A stretch of 57,429 bases of DNA from an uncultured Alphaproteobacteria bacterium (GTDB lineage: Bacteria; Pseudomonadota; Alphaproteobacteria; JAJFIK01): contig CAZFWG010000014.1 of the NCBI GenBank assembly GCA_964522525.1, forward strand, positions 2,492 through 59,920, written 5' to 3'. Positions 47,510 through 55,239 of this stretch are shown here, in pieces. The notes below the pieces were generated by a model. It made no database searches. It was not told where the DNA came from and saw only the letters and a program-made list of their open reading frames with translations. Position 1 is the stretch's first letter, and every line of letters begins with the position of its first letter. The position numbers were made by a program, and so were the translations under genes.

Positions 47510-47929
47510 GTGAAAATCGTCATTGATACGAATGTCATTGTCGCTGCGTTTAGAAGTCGACAGGGAGCCAGCAACAGACTGCTCCGGCTTGTGGAGACGG
47601 GTGCCGTCCGCCCGCTTTGTTCTACGGCGTTGTTTCTTGAATACGAAGCCGTTCTTGGCCGCCCTGAAATTCGTGCCGTCACCGGACATTCGGTAGACGA
47701 CGTACGCGCGATCATGAATGCGCTGGCAGGTTTTGCGCAGCCGGTCGATGTGCCCTTCAAACTGCGCCCCTCCCTCAAGGACGCCGATGACGAGATGGTG
47801 TTCGAGGCCGCGGTCAACGGTCGGGCGGACGCGATCGTGACCCACAACATAAAGGACTTTGCGGGGATCAAGAGGTCGGGCCTTGAGGTTCTGAAGCCCA
47901 GGCAGATCATTGAGAGGCTGACATCATGA
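47510..47929 (+). CDS. PIN-domain (VapC-like) toxin
   Basis: VIDTNV, LEYEAVL.R, D.DDEMV.EAA..G.ADAIVT.N.KDF. Confidence 0.9.
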   Translation: MKIVIDTNVIVAAFRSRQGASNRLLRLVETGAVRPLCSTALFLEYEAVLGRPEIRAVTGHSVDDVRAIMNALAGFAQPVDVPFKLRPSLKDADDEMVFEAAVNGRADAIVTHNIKDFAGIKRSGLEVLKPRQIIERLTS

Positions 47930-48180
47930 ACAAACCTGTCCGACACAAATATCCGCTTCAATTGCCGGTATCCCTCAAGGAAATGGCTGCTCGACTTGCG
48001 GAAGAGGATGGCGTTTCCCTGAACCAGTGGATCGTTACCGCGGTTGCCCAGAAAATCGGCGCCGTGGAAACGGCCGAAAGCTTTCTGAAAGAACGGGCCG
48101 GCCAGGCGAAACCCGGAGATCTGGGACGGTTCTTGAACCGGGCACCGGATGTGCCGCCGGACGGCGAAGATTCTCTCTGA
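47926..48180 (+). CDS. Ribbon-helix-helix (HicB-like) putative antitoxin
   Basis: YPL.LP.SL...A..LA..DGVSLNQ.I..AVA.K; ATGA overlap with the toxin. Confidence 0.85.
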   Translation: MNKPVRHKYPLQLPVSLKEMAARLAEEDGVSLNQWIVTAVAQKIGAVETAESFLKERAGQAKPGDLGRFLNRAPDVPPDGEDSL

Positions 48181-48321: not shown

Positions 48322-49524
48322 ATGAGAGAGGCCGTTATCGTCTCCACCGCGCGCACCGGCATCGGCAAGGCCAATCGGGGCAGTTTCAACCAGACCCACG
48401 GGGCGGTCATGGCGGGCCACGCCCTCGCCCATGCCATCGACCGGGCGGGCATCGACGCGGGCGATGTCGAGGATTTCGTCCTGGGCTGCGGCTATCCGGA
48501 AGGCGCCACGGGCCACAATCTGGGCCGCAACGCCGCCATCAAGGCGGGCTGCCCGGTCACCACCGGCGGGACCACCATGACCCGCTACTGCGCCTCCGGC
48601 CTCCAGGCCATCGCCTATGCCGCCCAGCAGGTGATCGCCAACGGCACGCCCGTCATCGCGGCGGGCGGTGTGGAGAGCATCTCGCTCGTGGAGCGCGGTA
48701 CGTTCAACACGGATCATTTCTTCGAGGAAACCCTCCTTGAAAGCCACCCGGCCCTGTGGATGACCATGATCGAGACGGCGGAGATCGTCGCCGAACGCTA
48801 TGGCATCTCGCGCGAGGTCCAGGACGAATACGGCTTCCAGAGCCAGCAGCGCACGGCCGCCGCGCAAGCGGCCGGCAAATTCGACGACGAAATCGTTCCG
48901 CTTACGGTCCAATGGCATAAATTCGACAAGGCCACCAATGAAACGACCGTGGTCGAGCACACGATCACCCAGGACGAATGCAACCGTCCCCAGACGACCC
49001 TGGAGGACCTTCAGAAGCTGGGTCCGGTCTTCGCCAACGGCCAACAGGTGAAGGAAGGCAAATTCATCACGGCGGGCAATGCGAGCCAGCTCTCCGATGG
49101 CGCCAGTGCCTGCATCATCATGGACGCCAAGGAAGCCGAACGCCGGGGCCTTCAGCCTTTGGGCATCTTCCGGGGCTTCGCCACCCATGGGGTGTCCCCG
49201 GAGGAAATGGGCATCGGCCCTGTCAAGGCGGTCCCGCGCCTGCTCGAGCGTCACGGGCTGAAAGTCGACGATATCGGCTTGTGGGAACTGAACGAGGCCT
49301 TTGCGAGCCAGTGTCTTTACTGTCGGGACACCCTCGGCATCGACAACGAGATCTACAACGTCAATGGCGGGGCCATTGCCATCGGCCACCCCTATGGCAT
49401 GACGGGCGCCCGTTGTGTCGGCCATCTCCTGATCGAAGGGCGCCGCCGGGGCGTGAAATATGGCGTTGTCACCATGTGCGTGGGCGGCGGCCAGGGCGCG
49501 GCCGGACTGTTCGAGATCCTGTAA
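48322..49524 (+). CDS. Acetyl-CoA C-acyltransferase (thiolase)
   Basis: [53 protein letters not shown]. Confidence 0.95.
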
Positions 49525-49595
49525 GCCGTCTTGGATCCTCATTTCTGATGGCGACAGCGTACCGATTGGTATGCTGTCGCCCTGCCGCGTGAGGA

Positions 49596-50516
49596 TCAAT
49601 CATTGTCCAGACAGTCGTGGCGGATGCCTTGATTGTCCATCACCATGGCATGGATCCCGGCTTCCTTGATCCAGGCCAGACCCTCAAGCCCCTTGAGCAT
49701 GGCGATCGTGGCGCAACTGCCCGCCACCACACAATGGGGGGCCACTACCGACACCGCGGCGAGCCCATGGACGGGCCATCCCGTGCGGGGATTGAGGATA
49801 TGGGCATAGCGCACCCCGTCGATGACGAGACAACGCTCATAGTCCCCGCTGCTGGCCACGGCACCCTTGGCAAGATCGATGGCCCCCATAATATCGTCCG
49901 AATTGCGCCCATGACGCAGGGCGACCGACCAGGGCTGGCCGTCCGCATGGGGACCGATCACCCGGATATCCCCGCCCAGATCCACCAGACCATGGTGCAC
50001 CCGCCGCTGTTCCAGCAGGCCGGCGACGGTATCGGCGGCGTATTCTTTCACGATCCCGCCGAAATCGATTTCCATGCCCGGACGCCCGAAACGGATCTCG
50101 GAGCGGGTCCAGGACACGTGCTGCCATCCGATCCGCGGCAGCAGGTCATCAATCGCCTCCTGGCTCGGCAGCTGGCCTGACTTGAAATCCCAGGCGGCGC
50201 GCAACACCCCGGACGTGATGTCGAAAAGACCCTCGCTCGTCTCGTGGCAGGTTTGCGCGTAGTCGAGAAGGGCCGCGCATTCCTCGTCAATCGACACGCT
50301 TGTCCCGGCCTTCGCGGCCCTGTTGATCGATGCGAAAAAATTGTCCGGCAGGAAGCGGGAATATTTCTGCTCAAGCGCCGCGACCGCCGCCTCCGCCGCC
50401 TTGAGCGTGCGTTGGGCGGCCCAACGATCCGCTTGGTAGATCTTGATCGTGCACGGAGAGCCCATGGCCCGGAATTGCCGGACATGGAGTTTGGGGTTTC
50501 GGTTCTTAGAAGACAC
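49596..50516 (-). CDS. apbE: FAD:protein FMN transferase (ApbE family)
   Basis: F.AMG, SRF, G.FDIT.G, DFGGI.KEYA.D, D.GGD, A.SGDYER, HI.NPRTG.P; start inferred at GTG overlapping the upstream stop. Confidence 0.92.
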   Translation of the reverse strand: MSSKNRNPKLHVRQFRAMGSPCTIKIYQADRWAAQRTLKAAEAAVAALEQKYSRFLPDNFFASINRAAKAGTSVSIDEECAALLDYAQTCHETSEGLFDITSGVLRAAWDFKSGQLPSQEAIDDLLPRIGWQHVSWTRSEIRFGRPGMEIDFGGIVKEYAADTVAGLLEQRRVHHGLVDLGGDIRVIGPHADGQPWSVALRHGRNSDDIMGAIDLAKGAVASSGDYERCLVIDGVRYAHILNPRTGWPVHGLAAVSVVAPHCVVAGSCATIAMLKGLEGLAWIKEAGIHAMVMDNQGIRHDCLDND

Positions 50517-51810
50517 TTTCAAGACTGACGCCGAAACTGTTTGCGTCAAAATCATCAACCTCGGTATTCAGACCGTCGCTGATGGCCAAGTCACCCCGCC
50601 TGATATAGCGCTGATAATAGGCACGCACTTTGAGTGTCTTGAGGGGCGAGTCCTCGAGATTGATGGCTTTTGTCAGTTCGATGGACGGACTGAGGGCACC
50701 GAAGGCTGCCAGGCGATAGTCGCTCGAGAATGCGGCCCCCGGCCCGGTTTGTGCCGACGTGAAGAACGGCCGATAGAAGGTCGCATCGCTTTGACTGTAA
50801 TAACGAATGCCCGGCACGATCTCCCAGGTGTCGCCGATTTCCTTGCGAAGCTGGGCGTTGATGGCGTGGGAATCCGTATCCCATGTATCTGCCGTATACC
50901 GATAATTGACATGTAAAGCCGATCTGGAGCCCGCCAGGTAGGTGCTATATTGCGTGAACAGCGTGAAAATATCCCGGTCGTCCGGGCGTTCTTCCGGCAG
51001 CGTTGTTTCGGTATCCGTCAGAAAAACGCCCTTGTACTGATCACTGAGGAACCCGGTTGCACGAATATAGCTTAGACTGAGTTCCACGACACTGTTCCGG
51101 TTCAAGATGTAACTGACACCGCCCAGGAGTTCGAGCCGGTCTTTATCCTCTTCTATGTTATCACGGAAGATGAACTCCGACACCGTATCATCGGAGTAGC
51201 CGACCTGTCCGAACAGGGTCGTCCGCCCGCCTTTCAAGCGATAGTTGAAGTTCAGGCTGAAAAAGCGGGATTCATAGTCGAATTCCTGGGAGAAAGCGAC
51301 AACCCCACCGATGCTGTAGCGGTCACCGAAATAGCGCAGCTCCCCCTCGATGGAGGTACGGGTGTCGTCGATTTGGCCGCGGATGAGCGCCGGATCCTGG
51401 CCCGGCGCCGCATTGGCCGCGCCGCTGGCCGAGCCAACCGCATCGGCGGAATCAGCGCTGATGGGTGAGAAGATCAGTTCTTCCCCGGTTCCGGATGCGT
51501 TCGGACGCACCGCGAAGGGGGAAGCCCCGCTGACTTCCGTCAAATGCACAAGCAGGCCAACGCGCCAGCGCTCCGAAACCGGAGCGGAGAGCACAAGGCG
51601 ATCCTCCGTGATCTCGACCCGGTCGTCCGTCTCGAAATAATAGGCGCGGTTGTAGGAAAGCTCCGCATTGGGACTGTTGAAGCCCCGGTTCTGCGCCGAG
51701 GCATCATTGATGCCCGGGAGAACCAGCGCCGCCGCAGTCAGAGCAAGGAGTCCCCTCGCCCGATCAGTTGCAGCCACAGCCACCCCCGGCAACCTGACCG
51801 CCGCCCGCAT
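50506..51810 (-). CDS. DUF3570-like probable outer-membrane beta-barrel with SGAS motif
   Basis: Signal-like segment; Y.E..DRV, VSGASP, S.E.DY.S, GFLSD.Y, E.RPD.R, YRY..D.W....H, RYY.Q..A.FY, SSDYRL; ends in F. True start may be GTG 51783 or 51777. Confidence 0.85.
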   Translation of the reverse strand: MRAAVRLPGVAVAATDRARGLLALTAAALVLPGINDASAQNRGFNSPNAELSYNRAYYFETDDRVEITEDRLVLSAPVSERWRVGLLVHLTEVSGASPFAVRPNASGTGEELIFSPISADSADAVGSASGAANAAPGQDPALIRGQIDDTRTSIEGELRYFGDRYSIGGVVAFSQEFDYESRFFSLNFNYRLKGGRTTLFGQVGYSDDTVSEFIFRDNIEEDKDRLELLGGVSYILNRNSVVELSLSYIRATGFLSDQYKGVFLTDTETTLPEERPDDRDIFTLFTQYSTYLAGSRSALHVNYRYTADTWDTDSHAINAQLRKEIGDTWEIVPGIRYYSQSDATFYRPFFTSAQTGPGAAFSSDYRLAAFGALSPSIELTKAINLEDSPLKTLKVRAYYQRYIRRGDLAISDGLNTEVDDFDANSFGVSLESVF

Positions 51811-51991
51811 TGGCTTCCTTTGAGAAGAACAAGTGATTCTCGAAGGAAGACCGCAGATTCTGGGTGTCAGTCATCGCCTCTTTGGCTAGGATTTCCCGTT
51901 CCCAGGGCTGCACCGAGCTGGCGCATCCACCGAGAACCGTCGAGCAGAGGAAAGCGCAGGCAATCAGGCGGAAAGAATTACGCGACATCAT
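51764..51991 (-). CDS. DUF4266-like small lipoprotein ending GGGCGCN
   Basis: Lipobox LGGC; V.PWER..LA...M; SKEA..GG...GGGCGCN. Confidence 0.88.
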   Translation of the reverse strand: MMSRNSFRLIACAFLCSTVLGGCASSVQPWEREILAKEAMTDTQNLRSSFENHLFFSKEANAGGGQVAGGGCGCN

Positions 51992-52488
51992 TGTCTCCCC
52001 CGATTGTTCCGAACCGCTTCGGCGATCTGCTGTCGGATCTCTTTCCCGTCGGACGGATTGAAGCCCGAATGTTCATATAGAAATTCCCCGCCCGGACCAA
52101 ATACATAGGACGACGGCATGGCATCGACGTCGAAGCGCGTGGGACACTGACCAGTCGTATCCAGCGCCAGGGTGAAACTCGATGGATTGCGGCGGGCGAA
52201 GCGCAGGGCCTTGTCCCGCTCCGTGTCGACACTGATCGCAATCACCTCAAGCTCGTCCGGGTGAAACTCTTCCCGCAGCTCATTCATGAAGGGAAAGGAG
52301 AGCTGGCAGGGGCCGCACCAGGAGGCCCAGAAATCCAGATAAACGATTTTGCCGAGATGATCGCCCAGATCCACGGGCGTGCCATCGGCAAGGGAAACGG
52401 GCTGGCACTCCGGCAGATTGTCCGCTGCCCGAACGCCTGCCGGGCCGACGGCAAGGACCATGGTCACGGCAATGGCAAGGGCACGCAC
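51988..52488 (-). CDS. TlpA-family thiol:disulfide oxidoreductase
   Basis: GK.VYLDFWASWCGPC..SFP.M, F.V.AMP.S; signal-like N-terminus; start could be 52554. Confidence 0.92.
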   Translation of the reverse strand: MRALAIAVTMVLAVGPAGVRAADNLPECQPVSLADGTPVDLGDHLGKIVYLDFWASWCGPCQLSFPFMNELREEFHPDELEVIAISVDTERDKALRFARRNPSSFTLALDTTGQCPTRFDVDAMPSSYVFGPGGEFLYEHSGFNPSDGKEIRQQIAEAVRNNRGRQ

Positions 52489-52942
52489 TGCCCCCTGTTT
52501 GCCGGAAGCAACCAAGCGGTGAAAGCAACGTAGCGGAGGCACTGTAAAGCTCATGGATCCACACATTTTGATCGGATGACGTTCCCTGTTGTCATCTAAA
52601 ACTCCCGCGCGGAATACAAATGAAAACATTTCAATTTAAACTTTGAGTTGTTCCCGCGGGCCGCGTTCCCGGATACCCCAATCCCCGTCTCCGTTCGTTA
52701 TTTCCGCTCATCAATATGATTACTGAACATTTTGAAACCTTCGGCATCACGGAAAAAACCGAGTGATGCCAAGGCTGAACCAAGAAACGGGCAGATCCGT
52801 GGCCCCGCCCCGCGGGGCACGCAGCGTTCGGGATAGCCCCGTCAAAACAATGACTTCACGAGCTTATCACGTCGACGAGAGAACCCCATTCCGATTTGAC
52901 ATTAAATCAGAGTAAGGTGGATCCACCGCCACAGGAGGGTTA

Positions 52943-53062
52943 ATGGGCGAGGACAGAGCCCGTCGATTCCCTTGCCACGGGGGCCGCCCAACCTGGCACA
53001 CGGAACATATGAACAAAATGACACATGAGGCAGAATGGCACATTTGTCTGCCTACACCGTAA
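52943..53062 (+). CDS. Putative 39-aa His/Cys/Trp/Met-rich peptide (not in the ORF track)
   Basis: AGGAGG RBS at 52933-52938; MGEDRARRFPCHGGRPTWHTEHMNKMTHEAEWHICLPTP*; stops 22 nt before the CMD start. Confidence 0.45.
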   Translation: MGEDRARRFPCHGGRPTWHTEHMNKMTHEAEWHICLPTP

Positions 53063-53084
53063 AGGAGCAAACAGGAGAAAAGCC

Positions 53085-53684
53085 ATGCCCCATATCAACG
53101 CCAAATCACGTCGTGAACTGATCGCCTATGAGCCCATGTTCCAGGCCGTGGAACTGGCCATGGGTTTTGTCCCCAATTCCATGCTGACCATGGCACGGGT
53201 GCCGGGACTGCTTGAGGGGTTTGCCGGGCTCGGTATGGCGGTCCTCGGGCCCGGGCGTCTTGATCCCGGCCTCAAACAGATGATCGCCCACGTGGCGAGC
53301 CGGACGGCGGGGTGTCAGTATTGCATGGCCCATACGGCCCACTCCGCCCATCGCGTTGGTGTGGATACAGACAAACTCGAAGCGATCTGGTCCTATGAGA
53401 CCGATGGCCGCTTCACGGAAGGCGAGCGGGCCGCTTTGCGTCTTGCTCAGCTGGCGGCTCAAGTCCCCAATGCAACGACTCCGGCGGATTTCGAGGCTCT
53501 GAAAGCCCATTTCGACGCCGAAACCTGCCTTGAGATCGTGGCGGTGATCAGCCTGTTCGGCTTCTTGAATCGCTGGAACGACACGCTCGCCACGCACCTC
53601 GAAGACAGCGCCCGGATGTTTGGCGAAGCCCATCTCGCGCAACAAGGGTGGCAGGCCGGCAAGCACGGGGACAGCTCTTCCTGA
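53085..53684 (+). CDS. Carboxymuconolactone decarboxylase/AhpD-like protein
   Basis: MGFVPNS, S..AGCQYC.AH (CxxC), F...ERAAL, GFLNRWND.LAT; AGGAGA RBS. Confidence 0.88.
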   Translation: MPHINAKSRRELIAYEPMFQAVELAMGFVPNSMLTMARVPGLLEGFAGLGMAVLGPGRLDPGLKQMIAHVASRTAGCQYCMAHTAHSAHRVGVDTDKLEAIWSYETDGRFTEGERAALRLAQLAAQVPNATTPADFEALKAHFDAETCLEIVAVISLFGFLNRWNDTLATHLEDSARMFGEAHLAQQGWQAGKHGDSSS

Positions 53685-54165
53685 CCCGGATCAGGTCATC
53701 CGCGAGGCCACCTCTTTCGATTTGGTGTTTGTCCGCGCCCACACAACGCCAGGGGAGCGGGCGTCGCGCGAACAGCCATCCCCATGCCTTAAGCGTTGAT
53801 TTTCAATGGATTTCAGTCACGCCGCCCCCTCTTTTAGGACGAGACAAGCAAGGAGAAGCTCACAACGGGCTTGCACTTCCAAGTGGCTGGTGCATTCTTT
53901 ACGCGTCGATAAAAGGTCCTAGTGCCTTGAAATGATTAGTTCTTGCCACTCAATTGATGTAAAAACAAAAGATACAAGCCACGAGAAGCAGTGACACCTA
54001 CAGATATCCGGATCTGTATATCTTTATCGAACAAAAACGTATGCCATAGTCGCCCTGCTTTTCAATCTCTTCTCTTTTTTGTCTGTCCGTCACGACTTCA
54101 AATTGCGGATCCAGAAGGATCTCGATAACGTGAGCATTAGTTCACTGTTGTTGAGGGCGTAATCC

Positions 54166-55239
54166 ATGACGGACTTTCAGGTGCGTCGAACCAGTCTCCG
54201 AGATGCTCGATTTGTCACCCTCGATCGCCCCCCTCTCGCCTTCGGTGCCGTCAGACTGCGGATTGATCTGTTTGCCCTCACCGCCAACAATGTCATTTAC
54301 TCCGCCATGGGCGGCGGCCTGAACTACTGGGATTTTTTTCCTGCGCCCAAGGATTGGGGACGGCCGCCGGTTTGGGGTTTCGCCACGGTAGAGACATCCC
54401 GGCTGCCCGACATCGAACCGGGCGAGCGCGTCTACGGCCTTTTTCCCGTCAGTGAGACGCTCGATGTCCTGCCCTCCCGTCGGTCGGCGGCCGGGTTTGC
54501 GGACGGGATCCGGGAACAACGGAGCAAGGCAACCCTCTATAACCGCTATCTGTTTACGGATCAGGACCCGGCCTATGACGAGGAGTTCGAGGCCGAGCAG
54601 GCCCTGTTCCGCCCCCTGTTCTCCACCGGATGGTGGATCGCCGACACGATCTGCCACAGCATCCTGACACCTTCCACCGTGGTGATGTCGAGCGCGTCAT
54701 CGAAAGCCGCCCTGACAACGGCGTTCCAGCTCCAGCGCCTCGAGGACACACAGCTTATCGGTCTGACCTCTGATGATCATCTGGACTATGTAAAAGAGAT
54801 CGGACTCTATCACGACGTTTTTGCCTATGATGATCTTGAAGCCCTGATGACCGAAGGACCCACGGTCTTCGTCGATTTTCTGGGTCGGGATCATGTGACC
54901 TCGACGGTGCATCATGCTTTGAGCGATCGGCTGACCCGAAGCCTGGCCATCGGTGTCTTGAATTGGAAGGCGGCGTCGGCCGGGGCGGCCGTGGTCGGCC
55001 TTCCAGGGCCCGTGCGGGAGTTCTTCTCGGTGCCCGACTACGCGGCCCGGCGGATCGGTCAGGCCGGGAATTGCCTCAATGAGGCCATGACCGAGGATCT
55101 GGGGCGGTTCTACGAAGAGGCCGCGAATTTCATTTCGCCCACTCACCTCTCCGGGAGCCAGGCCATCGCGCAGGCCTGGGCCCGTCTTGTCGACGACGAT
55201 GTGCCGCCCGACGAAGGTCTCGTCCTGTCTTTTCGCTGA
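54166..55239 (+). CDS. DUF2855-like protein
   Basis: FALTANN..Y, YWDFFP, P.WGFA.V..S, GER.YG.FP, YNRY, L.RPLF.T, SSASSK.A, IGLTS, P..GL. Confidence 0.82.
   Translation: MTDFQVRRTSLRDARFVTLDRPPLAFGAVRLRIDLFALTANNVIYSAMGGGLNYWDFFPAPKDWGRPPVWGFATVETSRLPDIEPGERVYGLFPVSETLDVLPSRRSAAGFADGIREQRSKATLYNRYLFTDQDPAYDEEFEAEQALFRPLFSTGWWIADTICHSILTPSTVVMSSASSKAALTTAFQLQRLEDTQLIGLTSDDHLDYVKEIGLYHDVFAYDDLEALMTEGPTVFVDFLGRDHVTSTVHHALSDRLTRSLAIGVLNWKAASAGAAVVGLPGPVREFFSVPDYAARRIGQAGNCLNEAMTEDLGRFYEEAANFISPTHLSGSQAIAQAWARLVDDDVPPDEGLVLSFR

Follow-up and report, generated by a model that had tools for sequence, protein, structure and literature searches.

How might a flavin come to be fixed covalently to a predicted outer-membrane protein when the transferase encoded beside it carries no signal peptide, and what might that flavin do in the company of a lipoprotein ending in two cysteines? 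The question is posed by a cassette of four consecutive minus-strand genes, encoding a TlpA-like redoxin, a DUF4266 lipoprotein, a DUF3570 protein and an ApbE-family flavin transferase, in 57,429 nucleotides of contig CAZFWG010000014.1 from an uncultured alphaproteobacterium; this whole stretch of DNA is referred to below as the window. We think it probable that the locus represents the published ApbE-DUF3570-thioredoxin-DUF4266 module in a compact form with coupled translation, and that it works in the stepwise manner proposed below, with flavin mononucleotide (FMN) attached to the DUF3570 precursor before its export and the lipoprotein lodged in the lumen of the resulting barrel. The gene order, which a first-pass annotation had read from the nucleotide sequence alone, is borne out by the open reading frame (ORF) map and by strong Pfam matches for all four families. 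The features on which the argument turns are the following.

49596..50516, minus strand: ApbE-family flavin adenine dinucleotide (FAD):protein FMN transferase with no signal peptide; maximal ORF to 50558, starts GTG 50516 or ATG 50465
50506..51810, minus strand: DUF3570 protein of 434 residues (PF12094, 1.7e-68) with a signal peptide at about residues 1-39 and a C-terminal Phe; alternative starts GTG 51783 and GTG 51777
51520..51531, minus strand: flavinylation motif SGAS, S94-S97 of DUF3570 (site 1), with Ser97 the predicted FMN acceptor, where strand 3 ends and loop L2 begins
51415..51444, minus strand: D123-A132 of DUF3570, DAVGSASGAA, non-canonical and degenerate, a remnant or insertion where site 2 would be
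51764..51991, minus strand: DUF4266 lipoprotein of 75 residues (PF14086, 4.8e-18) with lipobox LGGC, Cys23 and the C-terminus GGGCGCN
51770-51778, minus strand: C72 and C74 of DUF4266, within the CGC of its tail
51988..52554, minus strand: TlpA/ResA-like thiol:disulfide oxidoreductase, predicted to be periplasmic; ORF to 52629, likely start Met26 at 52554

The cluster type itself is published, and the statement in the first-pass annotation that it had been noted in comparative genomics was correct. According to the main text of Meheust et al. 2021 (eLife 10:e66878, PMC8238504), DUF3570 is an ApbE substrate with two conserved [S/T]GA[S/T] motifs; the protein of C. luteolum, produced in E. coli together with its cognate ApbE, was flavinylated though found mostly in the cell pellet, and the modification was lost only when both motif serines were mutated. 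The same text counts 227 DsbD clusters with ApbE, DUF3570, a thioredoxin-like protein and DUF4266, 316 four-gene clusters without DsbD, and 25 DUF3570 clusters with the iron transporter VIT1, and it proposes a hybrid thioredoxin-like/flavinylation system, fed by DsbD, in which the CXC of DUF4266 "may undergo redox cycling". The relay from TlpA through CxC to covalent FMN that had been suggested for the present locus is essentially this printed hypothesis; what our model does not support is contact between its first two members in the assembled state, where a periplasmic TlpA could not reach a CGC at the outer end of the barrel. In its four families, its [S/T]GA[S/T] motif and its C-terminal CXC, the window matches the clusters described in that main text and fits the 316 that have no neighbouring DsbD. 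It differs in having one intact motif, where the tested C. luteolum protein has two, and in a redoxin that matches AhpC-TSA, Redoxin and Thioredoxin_8 rather than the PF13899 named in the paper. A preprint (10.1101/2023.06.07.544157) merely mentions the same gene neighbourhood. In the main text of PMC8238504 the word "barrel" is absent and the outer membrane occurs only in another context, nor does that text discuss the missing signal peptide of ApbE, which the per-gene predictions of its supplementary file 1 may already show; a literature search joining ApbE flavinylation with an outer-membrane barrel found no paper. In the literature searched we met neither the barrel-and-plug architecture nor the outer-end position of the flavin site nor the leaderless ApbE clade; the cluster type is established in print.

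The genes of the cassette are closely packed. The stop codon of the redoxin gene lies over the start codon of DUF4266 (ATGA, four nucleotides shared), and DUF4266 and DUF3570 overlap by 14-47 nucleotides depending on the start codon, both alternative GTG starts of DUF3570 falling inside the codons for the CGCN terminus of the lipoprotein. The genes had first been described as overlapping throughout, which is accurate for these two junctions; at the third, the overlap exists only if ApbE starts at or upstream of GTG 50516 (11 nucleotides shared with the DUF3570 stop from that codon itself) and vanishes with ATG 50465, the start that gene callers chose. In all 28 loci that we compared (the window and 27 from other genomes) DUF4266 adjoins DUF3570, and the lipoprotein ends in GCGCN in 27 of them and in GCGCY in one. 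A Shine-Dalgarno-like AAGGAAG precedes the DUF3570 start, which falls within the final DUF4266 codons or immediately ahead of them. Across the family, the lipoprotein gene thus contains in its last codons the start of the gene for the barrel, which argues for coupled, stoichiometric synthesis of the two proteins; natural DUF4266-DUF3570 fusions were absent among the DUF3570 hits. The recurring DUF3570 N-termini VAVAAT and MRMQL were considered as a special signal and rejected, as they are the other reading frame of the DUF4266 GGCGCN codons. The lipoprotein itself, described at first as 75 residues ending in CGCN, is confirmed by its Pfam match, lipobox and GGGCGCN terminus. It carries the motifs PWER..LA...M and H.(F/Y)FSKE and a Gly-rich tail, ANAGGGQVAGGGCGCN, and among 24 aligned DUF4266 proteins C23, M40, E59, G70, G71, C72, G73 and C74 are invariant, with H53 and N75 nearly so. 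Modelled alone, DUF4266 reached a predicted local distance difference test score (pLDDT) of 65 and no confident fold, with one helix at residues 43-62 and a disordered tail.

Whether the DUF3570 of the window is likely to carry flavin was assessed in a 128-row alignment comprising the window protein, two same-genus homologues and 125 representatives, the last being the hits of 360-480 residues in the 150 best of 1361 (E<=0.001). The SGAS that had been placed at 51520-51531 corresponds exactly to S94-S97, and the fear that this motif might not be conserved proved unfounded: an exact [ST]GA[ST] stands at the aligned site 1 in 109 of the 128 homologues, G95, A96 and P98 are each at least 90% conserved, and natural variants of the site include TSAT, GGAS and AGAT. 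Given this conservation, the motif is, as far as sequence can tell, more than a chance occurrence. Across the alignment, 70 proteins hold two [ST]GA[ST] motifs, 48 hold one, seven none and three as many as three; the one-motif protein is a common variant (48/128), and a single motif is compatible with membership of the cluster type. The DAVGSASGA-like segment offered as a second site did not fare so well. D123-A132 contains no exact [ST]GA[ST], its position is not conserved (the residues are TGNL in same-genus homologues, ATAA or STAA in two others), and it falls in a low-confidence insertion with pLDDT <50 at residues 124-134. Ser129, in its GSAS, might conceivably be a weak acceptor, a role for which nothing here speaks.

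ApbE follows directly downstream of DUF3570 and matches PF02424 at 8.7e-75, the domain running from residue 32 of the maximal ORF and beginning FRAMGSPC; ApbE structures in the PDB (4xdr, 3pnd, 4ifu and others) match at 9e-38 to 5e-24. Even the maximal ORF supplies just 30 residues ahead of AMGS, and these contain neither a hydrophobic stretch (maxKD12 1.47) nor a lipobox, a feature on which the first-pass annotation is silent. Among its 120 best homologues, 119 of which could be anchored, fewer than 18 residues precede the domain in 100, a longer non-hydrophobic extension does so in 18, and one is borderline. Within the fetched flanks, 24 of the 28 loci have an ApbE, and 22 of these DUF3570-linked enzymes lack a signal peptide even in the maximal ORF; one has a clear signal peptide (locus L058), and one (L061) is ambiguous only with a start that would overlap DUF3570 by 218 nucleotides, the database protein having been called without a signal peptide. 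The same measure, applied as a control to 19 other ApbE paralogues of the same genomes, found a clear signal peptide or lipobox in 17. In a maximum-likelihood tree of 47 ApbE domains, from which the duplicate row L083 was left out, a branch with support of 100/97 parts 27 leaderless enzymes (22 cassette-linked, five without DUF3570) from 20 others. Of these 20, the 17 paralogues and L058 have signal peptides, whereas L064 and L077 are leaderless. In the phylum sample, 24 genomes encode an ApbE at least 36% identical to that of the window, and 19 of them also encode DUF3570.

The genome of the window holds one ApbE, one DUF3570 and one DUF4266, and a genome-wide search found neither FMN_bind nor NqrB/RnfD; DUF3570 is for these reasons the only recognisable ApbE substrate in it. 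Because the ApbE clade has no signal peptide, FMN is most likely attached in the cytoplasm, to the unfolded DUF3570 precursor and before Sec export, in the subclass with leaderless ApbEs. According to a review (PMC12052999), a 7-residue tag is enough for ApbE flavinylation, and cytosolic ApbEs have been described only with cytosolic targets. The C. luteolum DUF3570 was flavinylated while mostly in the pellet, as reported in the main text of PMC8238504, and the protein located there is not folded as a barrel, from which it would appear that ApbE has no need of a folded barrel. Two sorts of characterized ApbE offer points of comparison. The cytoplasmic enzyme of Klebsiella pneumoniae, as treated in the same review, likewise has no signal peptide and flavinylates its soluble fumarate reductase in the cytoplasm; its substrate is cytoplasmic, however, whereas the only recognisable substrate here has a signal peptide and a barrel fold. 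The ApbEs of Vibrio, Salmonella and Treponema (4xdr, 3pnd and 4ifu) share the fold family and presumably the same FAD-dependent FMN transfer, but theirs are extracytoplasmic enzymes with a lipoprotein signal peptide, while at most about 30 non-hydrophobic residues precede the domain here.

Some leaderless members of the clade occur in other settings. Small leaderless EF-hand proteins with [ST]GAS near the N-terminus (L068:5606-5941, plus strand, 111 residues; L067:4140-4541, plus strand, 133 residues) are each encoded next to a leaderless clade ApbE in genomes in which no DUF3570 was found, and they may represent an undescribed cytosolic ApbE substrate. On a 4.3-kb contig (L069:176-3206, plus strand), a leaderless clade ApbE comes right after an OmpR-type response regulator and a histidine kinase, with overlapping genes; no DUF3570 is encoded on that contig.

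A second DUF3570 cluster type, which we call subclass B (L057, L058 and L062-L065), has a DUF4266 with PWVKPYER. Its neighbours include an HZS_alpha-domain protein of about 900-1000 residues (in one case with paired CXXCH), SH3 and OMP_b-brl small-barrel proteins, and TPR proteins. ApbE is either missing within 8 kb or lies a few kilobases away with a signal peptide (L058, L072, L079, L081), L064 being the exception. Taken together, the leaderless ApbEs of the compact type and the signal-peptide ApbEs of subclass B imply that flavinylation on either side of the inner membrane seems to occur.

Models of DUF3570 point to the outer membrane as the destination of the flavin. AlphaFold2, given the 128-row alignment, produced an all-beta structure of 16 main strands (pLDDT 86.6, predicted template-modelling score 0.83), with very short turns at 78-81, 162-164, 193-196, 238-239, 293-296, 326-328 and 385-391 at one end and long loops L2 (96-148), L5 (254-277), L7 (341-375) and L8 (406-420) at the other. 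A profile search of PDB sequences found no relative. By structure, Foldseek returned only generic outer-membrane barrels from the PDB (template-modelling scores 0.35-0.48), and the top VIA-align matches are 16-strand barrels: PgaA (4y25, Z 20.8), PelBC (9h80, 20.4), CdiB (6wil, 20.2) and BcsC (6tzk, 19.2), with PgaA superposing at a root-mean-square deviation of 3.5 A over 256 residues. The protein also bears the marks of an outer-membrane barrel, namely an N-terminal hydrophobic segment ending in ASA, an even number of strands and an aromatic last residue, the last being Phe here and aromatic in 116 of the 128 homologues. The barrel that had been predicted from the sequence is accordingly supported by both the 16-strand model and its structural matches, which suggest that DUF3570 is a 16-strand outer-membrane beta-barrel. 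What is shared with PgaA, PelB, BcsC and CdiB/FhaC is the size of the barrel and its shape (Z 19-21; root-mean-square deviation 3.5-4.1 A over 256-294 residues); identity is just 10-12%, and neither polysaccharide nor two-partner-secretion genes accompany the cassette. In outer-membrane proteins, the termini and short turns face the periplasm. By this rule, from which the orientation is taken, Ser97 would stand where strand 3 gives way to L2, on the outer side of the barrel. Most of the invariant residues (E176, D178, G253, D257, R275, P276, R336, Q340, F345, D364 and R366) gather in the long loops and the outer ends of strands. DUF3570 barrels also occur inside far longer proteins: one of 912 residues (L047:7890-10628, plus strand), whose parts outside DUF3570 gave no Pfam match, and three of 1088, 1113 and 2614 residues (P0224, P0273 and P0285).

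The lipoprotein is predicted to occupy the barrel. We modelled barrel residues 42-434 with mature DUF4266 (residues 23-75), each with its own alignment, and obtained interaction prediction scores from aligned errors (ipSAE) of 0.84, 0.82 and 0.83 (median 0.83), against 0.01 for the best of three controls. The mark used for this score is reached by 58 of 80 solved complexes and two of 110 mismatched pairs, a calibration that is only rough here because custom alignments were used. The pLDDT of the partner was 61-65, and the runs share at least 60% of their contacts. A profile search of PDB sequences found no relative of DUF4266 either and, since neither protein has a solved relative by sequence, the score should not be the memory of a like complex. 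Confident contacts on the barrel are made by alternate residues of strands 1, 2 and 8-16, together with loop L7; alternate residues of a strand form the lumen face, which places the modelled lipoprotein inside the barrel. There, DUF4266 residues 31-65 run from the periplasmic to the loop end: residues 31-45 contact the short-turn end (barrel 235-241, 289-298, 322-324, 330, 382 and 431), residues 47-51 the middle of its height, and residues 55-59 the loop end (barrel 314, 316, 336-340, 366, 372 and 402-404), with the invariant E59 touching the invariant barrel residues R336, Q340 and R366; residues 50-54 are also paired with barrel residue 427. With this rising register, the lipid anchor would be found at the periplasmic rim, while the CGC tail would project from the loop end, where Ser97 lies as well, and strands 3-7, which lie outside the confident contacts, would leave space for loop L2. 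The model suggests that DUF4266 sits inside the DUF3570 lumen; it supports binding, and is not proof of it. The idea that a Gly-rich tail threads the barrel is upheld in so far as residues 31-65 are placed in the lumen, but the tail itself (66-75) is not confidently positioned.

Outer-membrane lipoproteins are lodged in the barrel lumen in LptD-LptE and in RcsF-OmpA/C/F. The arrangement predicted here is alike in that respect, although the families are unrelated, there is no link to lipopolysaccharide or stress signalling, and the plug here bears a redox motif and is translationally coupled to its barrel. MtrCAB (e.g. 6r2q) is a further parallel, as a redox protein in an outer-membrane barrel lumen that carries electrons across that membrane; on the DUF3570 side the likeness is model-based. 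MtrB aligns merely as a generic barrel (Z 14.6) and has 26 strands against 16, and the cassette has no hemes, no CXXCH and no cytochrome family. The insert here is instead a 53-residue lipoprotein with one CGC, the single FMN would sit on the barrel itself, and no cofactor chain spans the membrane. The two might nonetheless operate by analogy.

The remaining gene encodes the presumed source of reducing power. The exported WCGPC thioredoxin recognised at the outset is indeed present, with WCGPC at 52306-52320 and an N-terminal hydrophobic signal or anchor segment. Its Pfam matches are AhpC-TSA (9.4e-17), Redoxin (4e-16) and Thioredoxin_8 (6e-12), several thioredoxin-fold models match at 1e-9 to 1e-17, and the NCBIfam matches to ResA (1e-19) and TlpA (3e-15) all fall under the equivalog cut-offs. 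The best PDB relative is 3gl3 ("putative DsbE", 5.5e-34); ResA matches at 2e-16 and TlpA 1jfu at 5.5e-11. With TlpA, ResA and CcmG (1jfu, 1st9; closest solved 3gl3) it shares the WCxxC thioredoxin fold, the N-terminal signal or anchor and the expected reduction by DsbD/CcdA; it differs in its presumed target, a CGC lipoprotein rather than an apocytochrome c or copper protein. A homologue lies immediately upstream of DUF4266 in 26 of the 28 loci. The scan around compact-type cassettes took in 174 of the 221 neighbouring ORFs, and its counts are accordingly lower bounds: DsbD adjoins the cassette in at least four of the 28 loci, Cupredoxin_1 occurs in at least two, and histidine-kinase/response-regulator genes lie near the cassette in at least seven. 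At one locus (L043:9607-10146, minus strand), the slot upstream of DUF4266 that usually holds the thioredoxin-like gene is taken by a cytochrome b561 (Ni_hydr_CYTB) gene, which hints at an alternative electron feed. Two others (L053:9321-12095, minus strand; L054:4410-6722, plus strand) have large HYDIN/ASH-type Ig-like proteins adjoining the cassette, one fused to a redoxin domain and the other with a weak match to cytochrome c (cbb3-type).

The sequence of events that we propose may now be stated. ApbE would use FAD to link FMN by a phosphoester to Ser97 of SGAS, as has been shown in print for a homologue, and would do so in the cytoplasm on the unfolded DUF3570 precursor, prior to Sec export. 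DUF3570 would then fold as a 16-strand outer-membrane barrel, with the flavin loop L2 and the other long conserved loops at its outer end. DUF4266 would come to lie in the lumen, anchored by its lipid at the periplasmic rim and bringing its Gly-rich CGC tail up to the flavin loop, and electrons might be exchanged between the CGC dithiol/disulfide and FMN. The TlpA-like redoxin, reduced by a DsbD encoded elsewhere, would supply or reset the CGC thiols, either in transit or by way of a mobile tail. TlpA could, for example, be a maturation factor acting on the lipoprotein before it enters the barrel; alternatively, the Gly-rich tail (13 residues) or the flavin loop (53 residues) could swing through the free half of the lumen. 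As for the donor or acceptor at the cell-surface end, a metal ion or an oxidant is our leading guess.

Several considerations weigh against this scheme. The passage from TlpA to the CGC is its weakest step: the model sets the CGC at the outer end of the barrel, beyond the reach of a periplasmic or inner-membrane-anchored TlpA once the complex is assembled, and DUF3570, whose cysteine count is zero, has no residue of its own to relay electrons, the only thiols being C72 and C74 of DUF4266. Nor can one FMN by itself bridge a barrel of about 3 nm, there being no static cofactor chain, and the electron path across the outer membrane through FMN that was first envisaged is to that extent not supported. 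Since neither the tail (66-75) nor L2 has a confident position in the complex model, the proximity of CGC to FMN is something that we infer. Only site 1 (Ser97) is intact in the DUF3570 of the window, the second flavin site being degenerate. The ApbE of L058 and the ApbEs near subclass-B clusters carry signal peptides, and periplasmic flavinylation clearly exists too. We know of no exported protein that is flavinylated ahead of Sec transport; on the other side, Bonardi et al., in 2011, reportedly found that the Sec channel tolerates adducts on side chains that exceed FMN in size. Farther from the cassette, gene content is not conserved and points to no substrate, and all of the steps proposed for this locus are drawn from homology and models.

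Other interpretations of the same genes deserve comparison with the scheme just outlined. TlpA has a role in copper-protein maturation and with copper chaperones. The module could be one that acts on a metal at the outer membrane, either reducing it (Cu(II) to Cu(I), say, or Fe(III) to Fe(II)) or serving as its chaperone, with CGC, His53 and Met40 binding the ion, FMN giving the electrons, the barrel serving as the passage and TlpA keeping the cysteines reduced. The invariance or near-invariance of C72, C74, M40 and H53, all typical soft-metal ligands, speaks for this, as do the Cupredoxin_1 and two-component neighbours mentioned above and the VIT1 genes counted in the main text of PMC8238504; yet no metal transporter, chaperone or regulator stands beside the cassette in the window, the supporting neighbours belong to a minority of loci in which part of the neighbours were scanned, and the invariance of CGC suits a redox pair equally well, so that we hold metal handling to be unlikely. 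A different use of the same cysteines is exemplified by the yeast sulfhydryl oxidase Erv2p, in which a C-terminal Cys-Gly-Cys shuttle operates beside a flavin. A CGC on a disordered Gly-rich tail next to a flavin recalls its logic, and in the model both FMN and CGC lie at the outer, oxygen-exposed end of the barrel; thiols would in that case be oxidised through the tail, with electrons leaving via FMN to oxygen or an external acceptor. Such a flavin-dependent thiol oxidase strikes us as very unlikely, given that the redoxin partner is of the reducing TlpA/ResA/CcmG type, that DsbD, a supplier of reductant, accompanies the cassette in the loci and published clusters (PMC8238504, main text) enumerated above, and that the flavin fold is unrelated to that of Erv. 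The barrel could lastly be an ordinary solute channel in which the flavin or the lipoprotein does no more than gate or plug the pore in response to redox state, and no electrons pass. Its closest folds are export and solute barrels (PgaA, PelB, BcsC, CymA and porins), and a lumen-filling lipoprotein would shut a pore, but for a gate it would be costly to maintain a flavin transferase and a redoxin of its own along with an invariant CGC, and no cargo-synthesis genes are linked; we give this explanation hardly any credence.

A separate objection concerns the place of flavinylation rather than its purpose. The clade ApbE might be exported by an unrecognised route and flavinylate DUF3570 in the periplasm, its missing signal peptide having no mechanistic meaning. 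All well-studied ApbEs with exported targets are periplasmic lipoproteins (PMC12052999), and the ApbEs neighbouring subclass-B clusters carry signal peptides. To set against this, fewer than 18 residues precede the domain in 100 of 119 close homologues, the leaderless state marks the whole clade defined by the 100/97 branch, and the clade includes five leaderless members without DUF3570, two of them beside the leaderless [ST]GAS EF-hand proteins, which indicates cytosolic action. A Tat-like motif, moreover, was found in none of the 128 DUF3570 N-termini. We rate export by such a route as quite unlikely, and return to attachment in the cytoplasm.

Taken to its furthest extent, cytoplasmic attachment would mean that this ApbE clade gave up export, that the flavinylated precursor crosses Sec and is folded by the beta-barrel assembly machinery (BAM), and that the threaded CGC there meets the flavin at the outer mouth, in a haem-free thiol-flavin surface site wired to the periplasm through the plug. 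We regard this fuller version as possible but doubtful. If true, it would set a precedent both for attaching a cofactor ahead of Sec export and for a flavin-based equivalent of the porin-cytochrome conduits. If the models are right, DUF3570-DUF4266 would bring haem-free redox chemistry across or onto the outer membrane, with a covalent flavin and a CGC at the surface. The leaderless ApbE also bears on the problem of how FAD and a flavin transferase meet extracytosolic targets, which modification of a precursor may sidestep.

The surroundings of the cassette were examined for partners and regulators. As had been stated for the operon, a Pfam and ORF scan of the window found no FMN-bind protein, cytochrome or inner-membrane partner in the operon, and no DsbD anywhere in the window. 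The assembly (4.38 Mb, 159 contigs, marker completeness 100%) does encode a three-domain DsbD with a neighbouring redoxin on another contig, and a CcdA-like protein with a thioredoxin is likewise encoded on a contig other than that of the cassette. Upstream of the redoxin gene lies one further feature.

52630..53024: intergenic region between the cassette and a divergent CMD/AhpD-like gene, presumed from the ORF map to be the promoter region, with a putative regulatory role

Compared with Rfam, 49300-53300 yielded no match at E<=1, hence no riboswitch, and a scan for consensus promoters and terminators in the region upstream of the cassette found nothing above shuffled expectation. Among sequencing runs, the stretch occurs in four DNA runs from one study, three of which may be its source, and no RNA run containing it was listed.

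The distribution of DUF3570 is sporadic, with occurrences in four of 41 relatives (a count that includes the genome of the window and two of the four other genomes of the genus) and in 28 of the 401 genomes of the phylum sample. In each of the three DUF3570-bearing genomes of the genus the cassette stands among different neighbours, and their DUF3570 proteins are only 49-50% identical. The G+C content of the window is 0.56-0.59 at 50000-55000 and 0.62-0.69 upstream. This spread, the differing neighbours, the low identity and the drop in G+C are consistent with a mobile module acquired horizontally.

The genes to either side of the cassette are unrelated to it. One flank holds DnaB, alanine racemase, MlaE/F, a PIN toxin pair and thiolase; the other holds the CMD/AhpD-like protein, DUF2855, Hsp20, DUF1348 and a nitroreductase, which may form a stress or redox neighbourhood, one not kept in related loci. 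The CMD/AhpD-like gene itself (53025-53684, plus strand), divergent from the cassette, encodes a "peroxidase-related" protein matching PF02627 at 6.8e-12 and, below the cut-off, TIGR01926 at 2.8e-15. On the opposite flank, 1.4 kb from the cassette, a PIN-domain protein of 139 residues (PF13470, 2.4e-25) and an overlapping ORF of 84 residues, together spanning 47510-48180 of the window on the plus strand, are likely a toxin-antitoxin pair.

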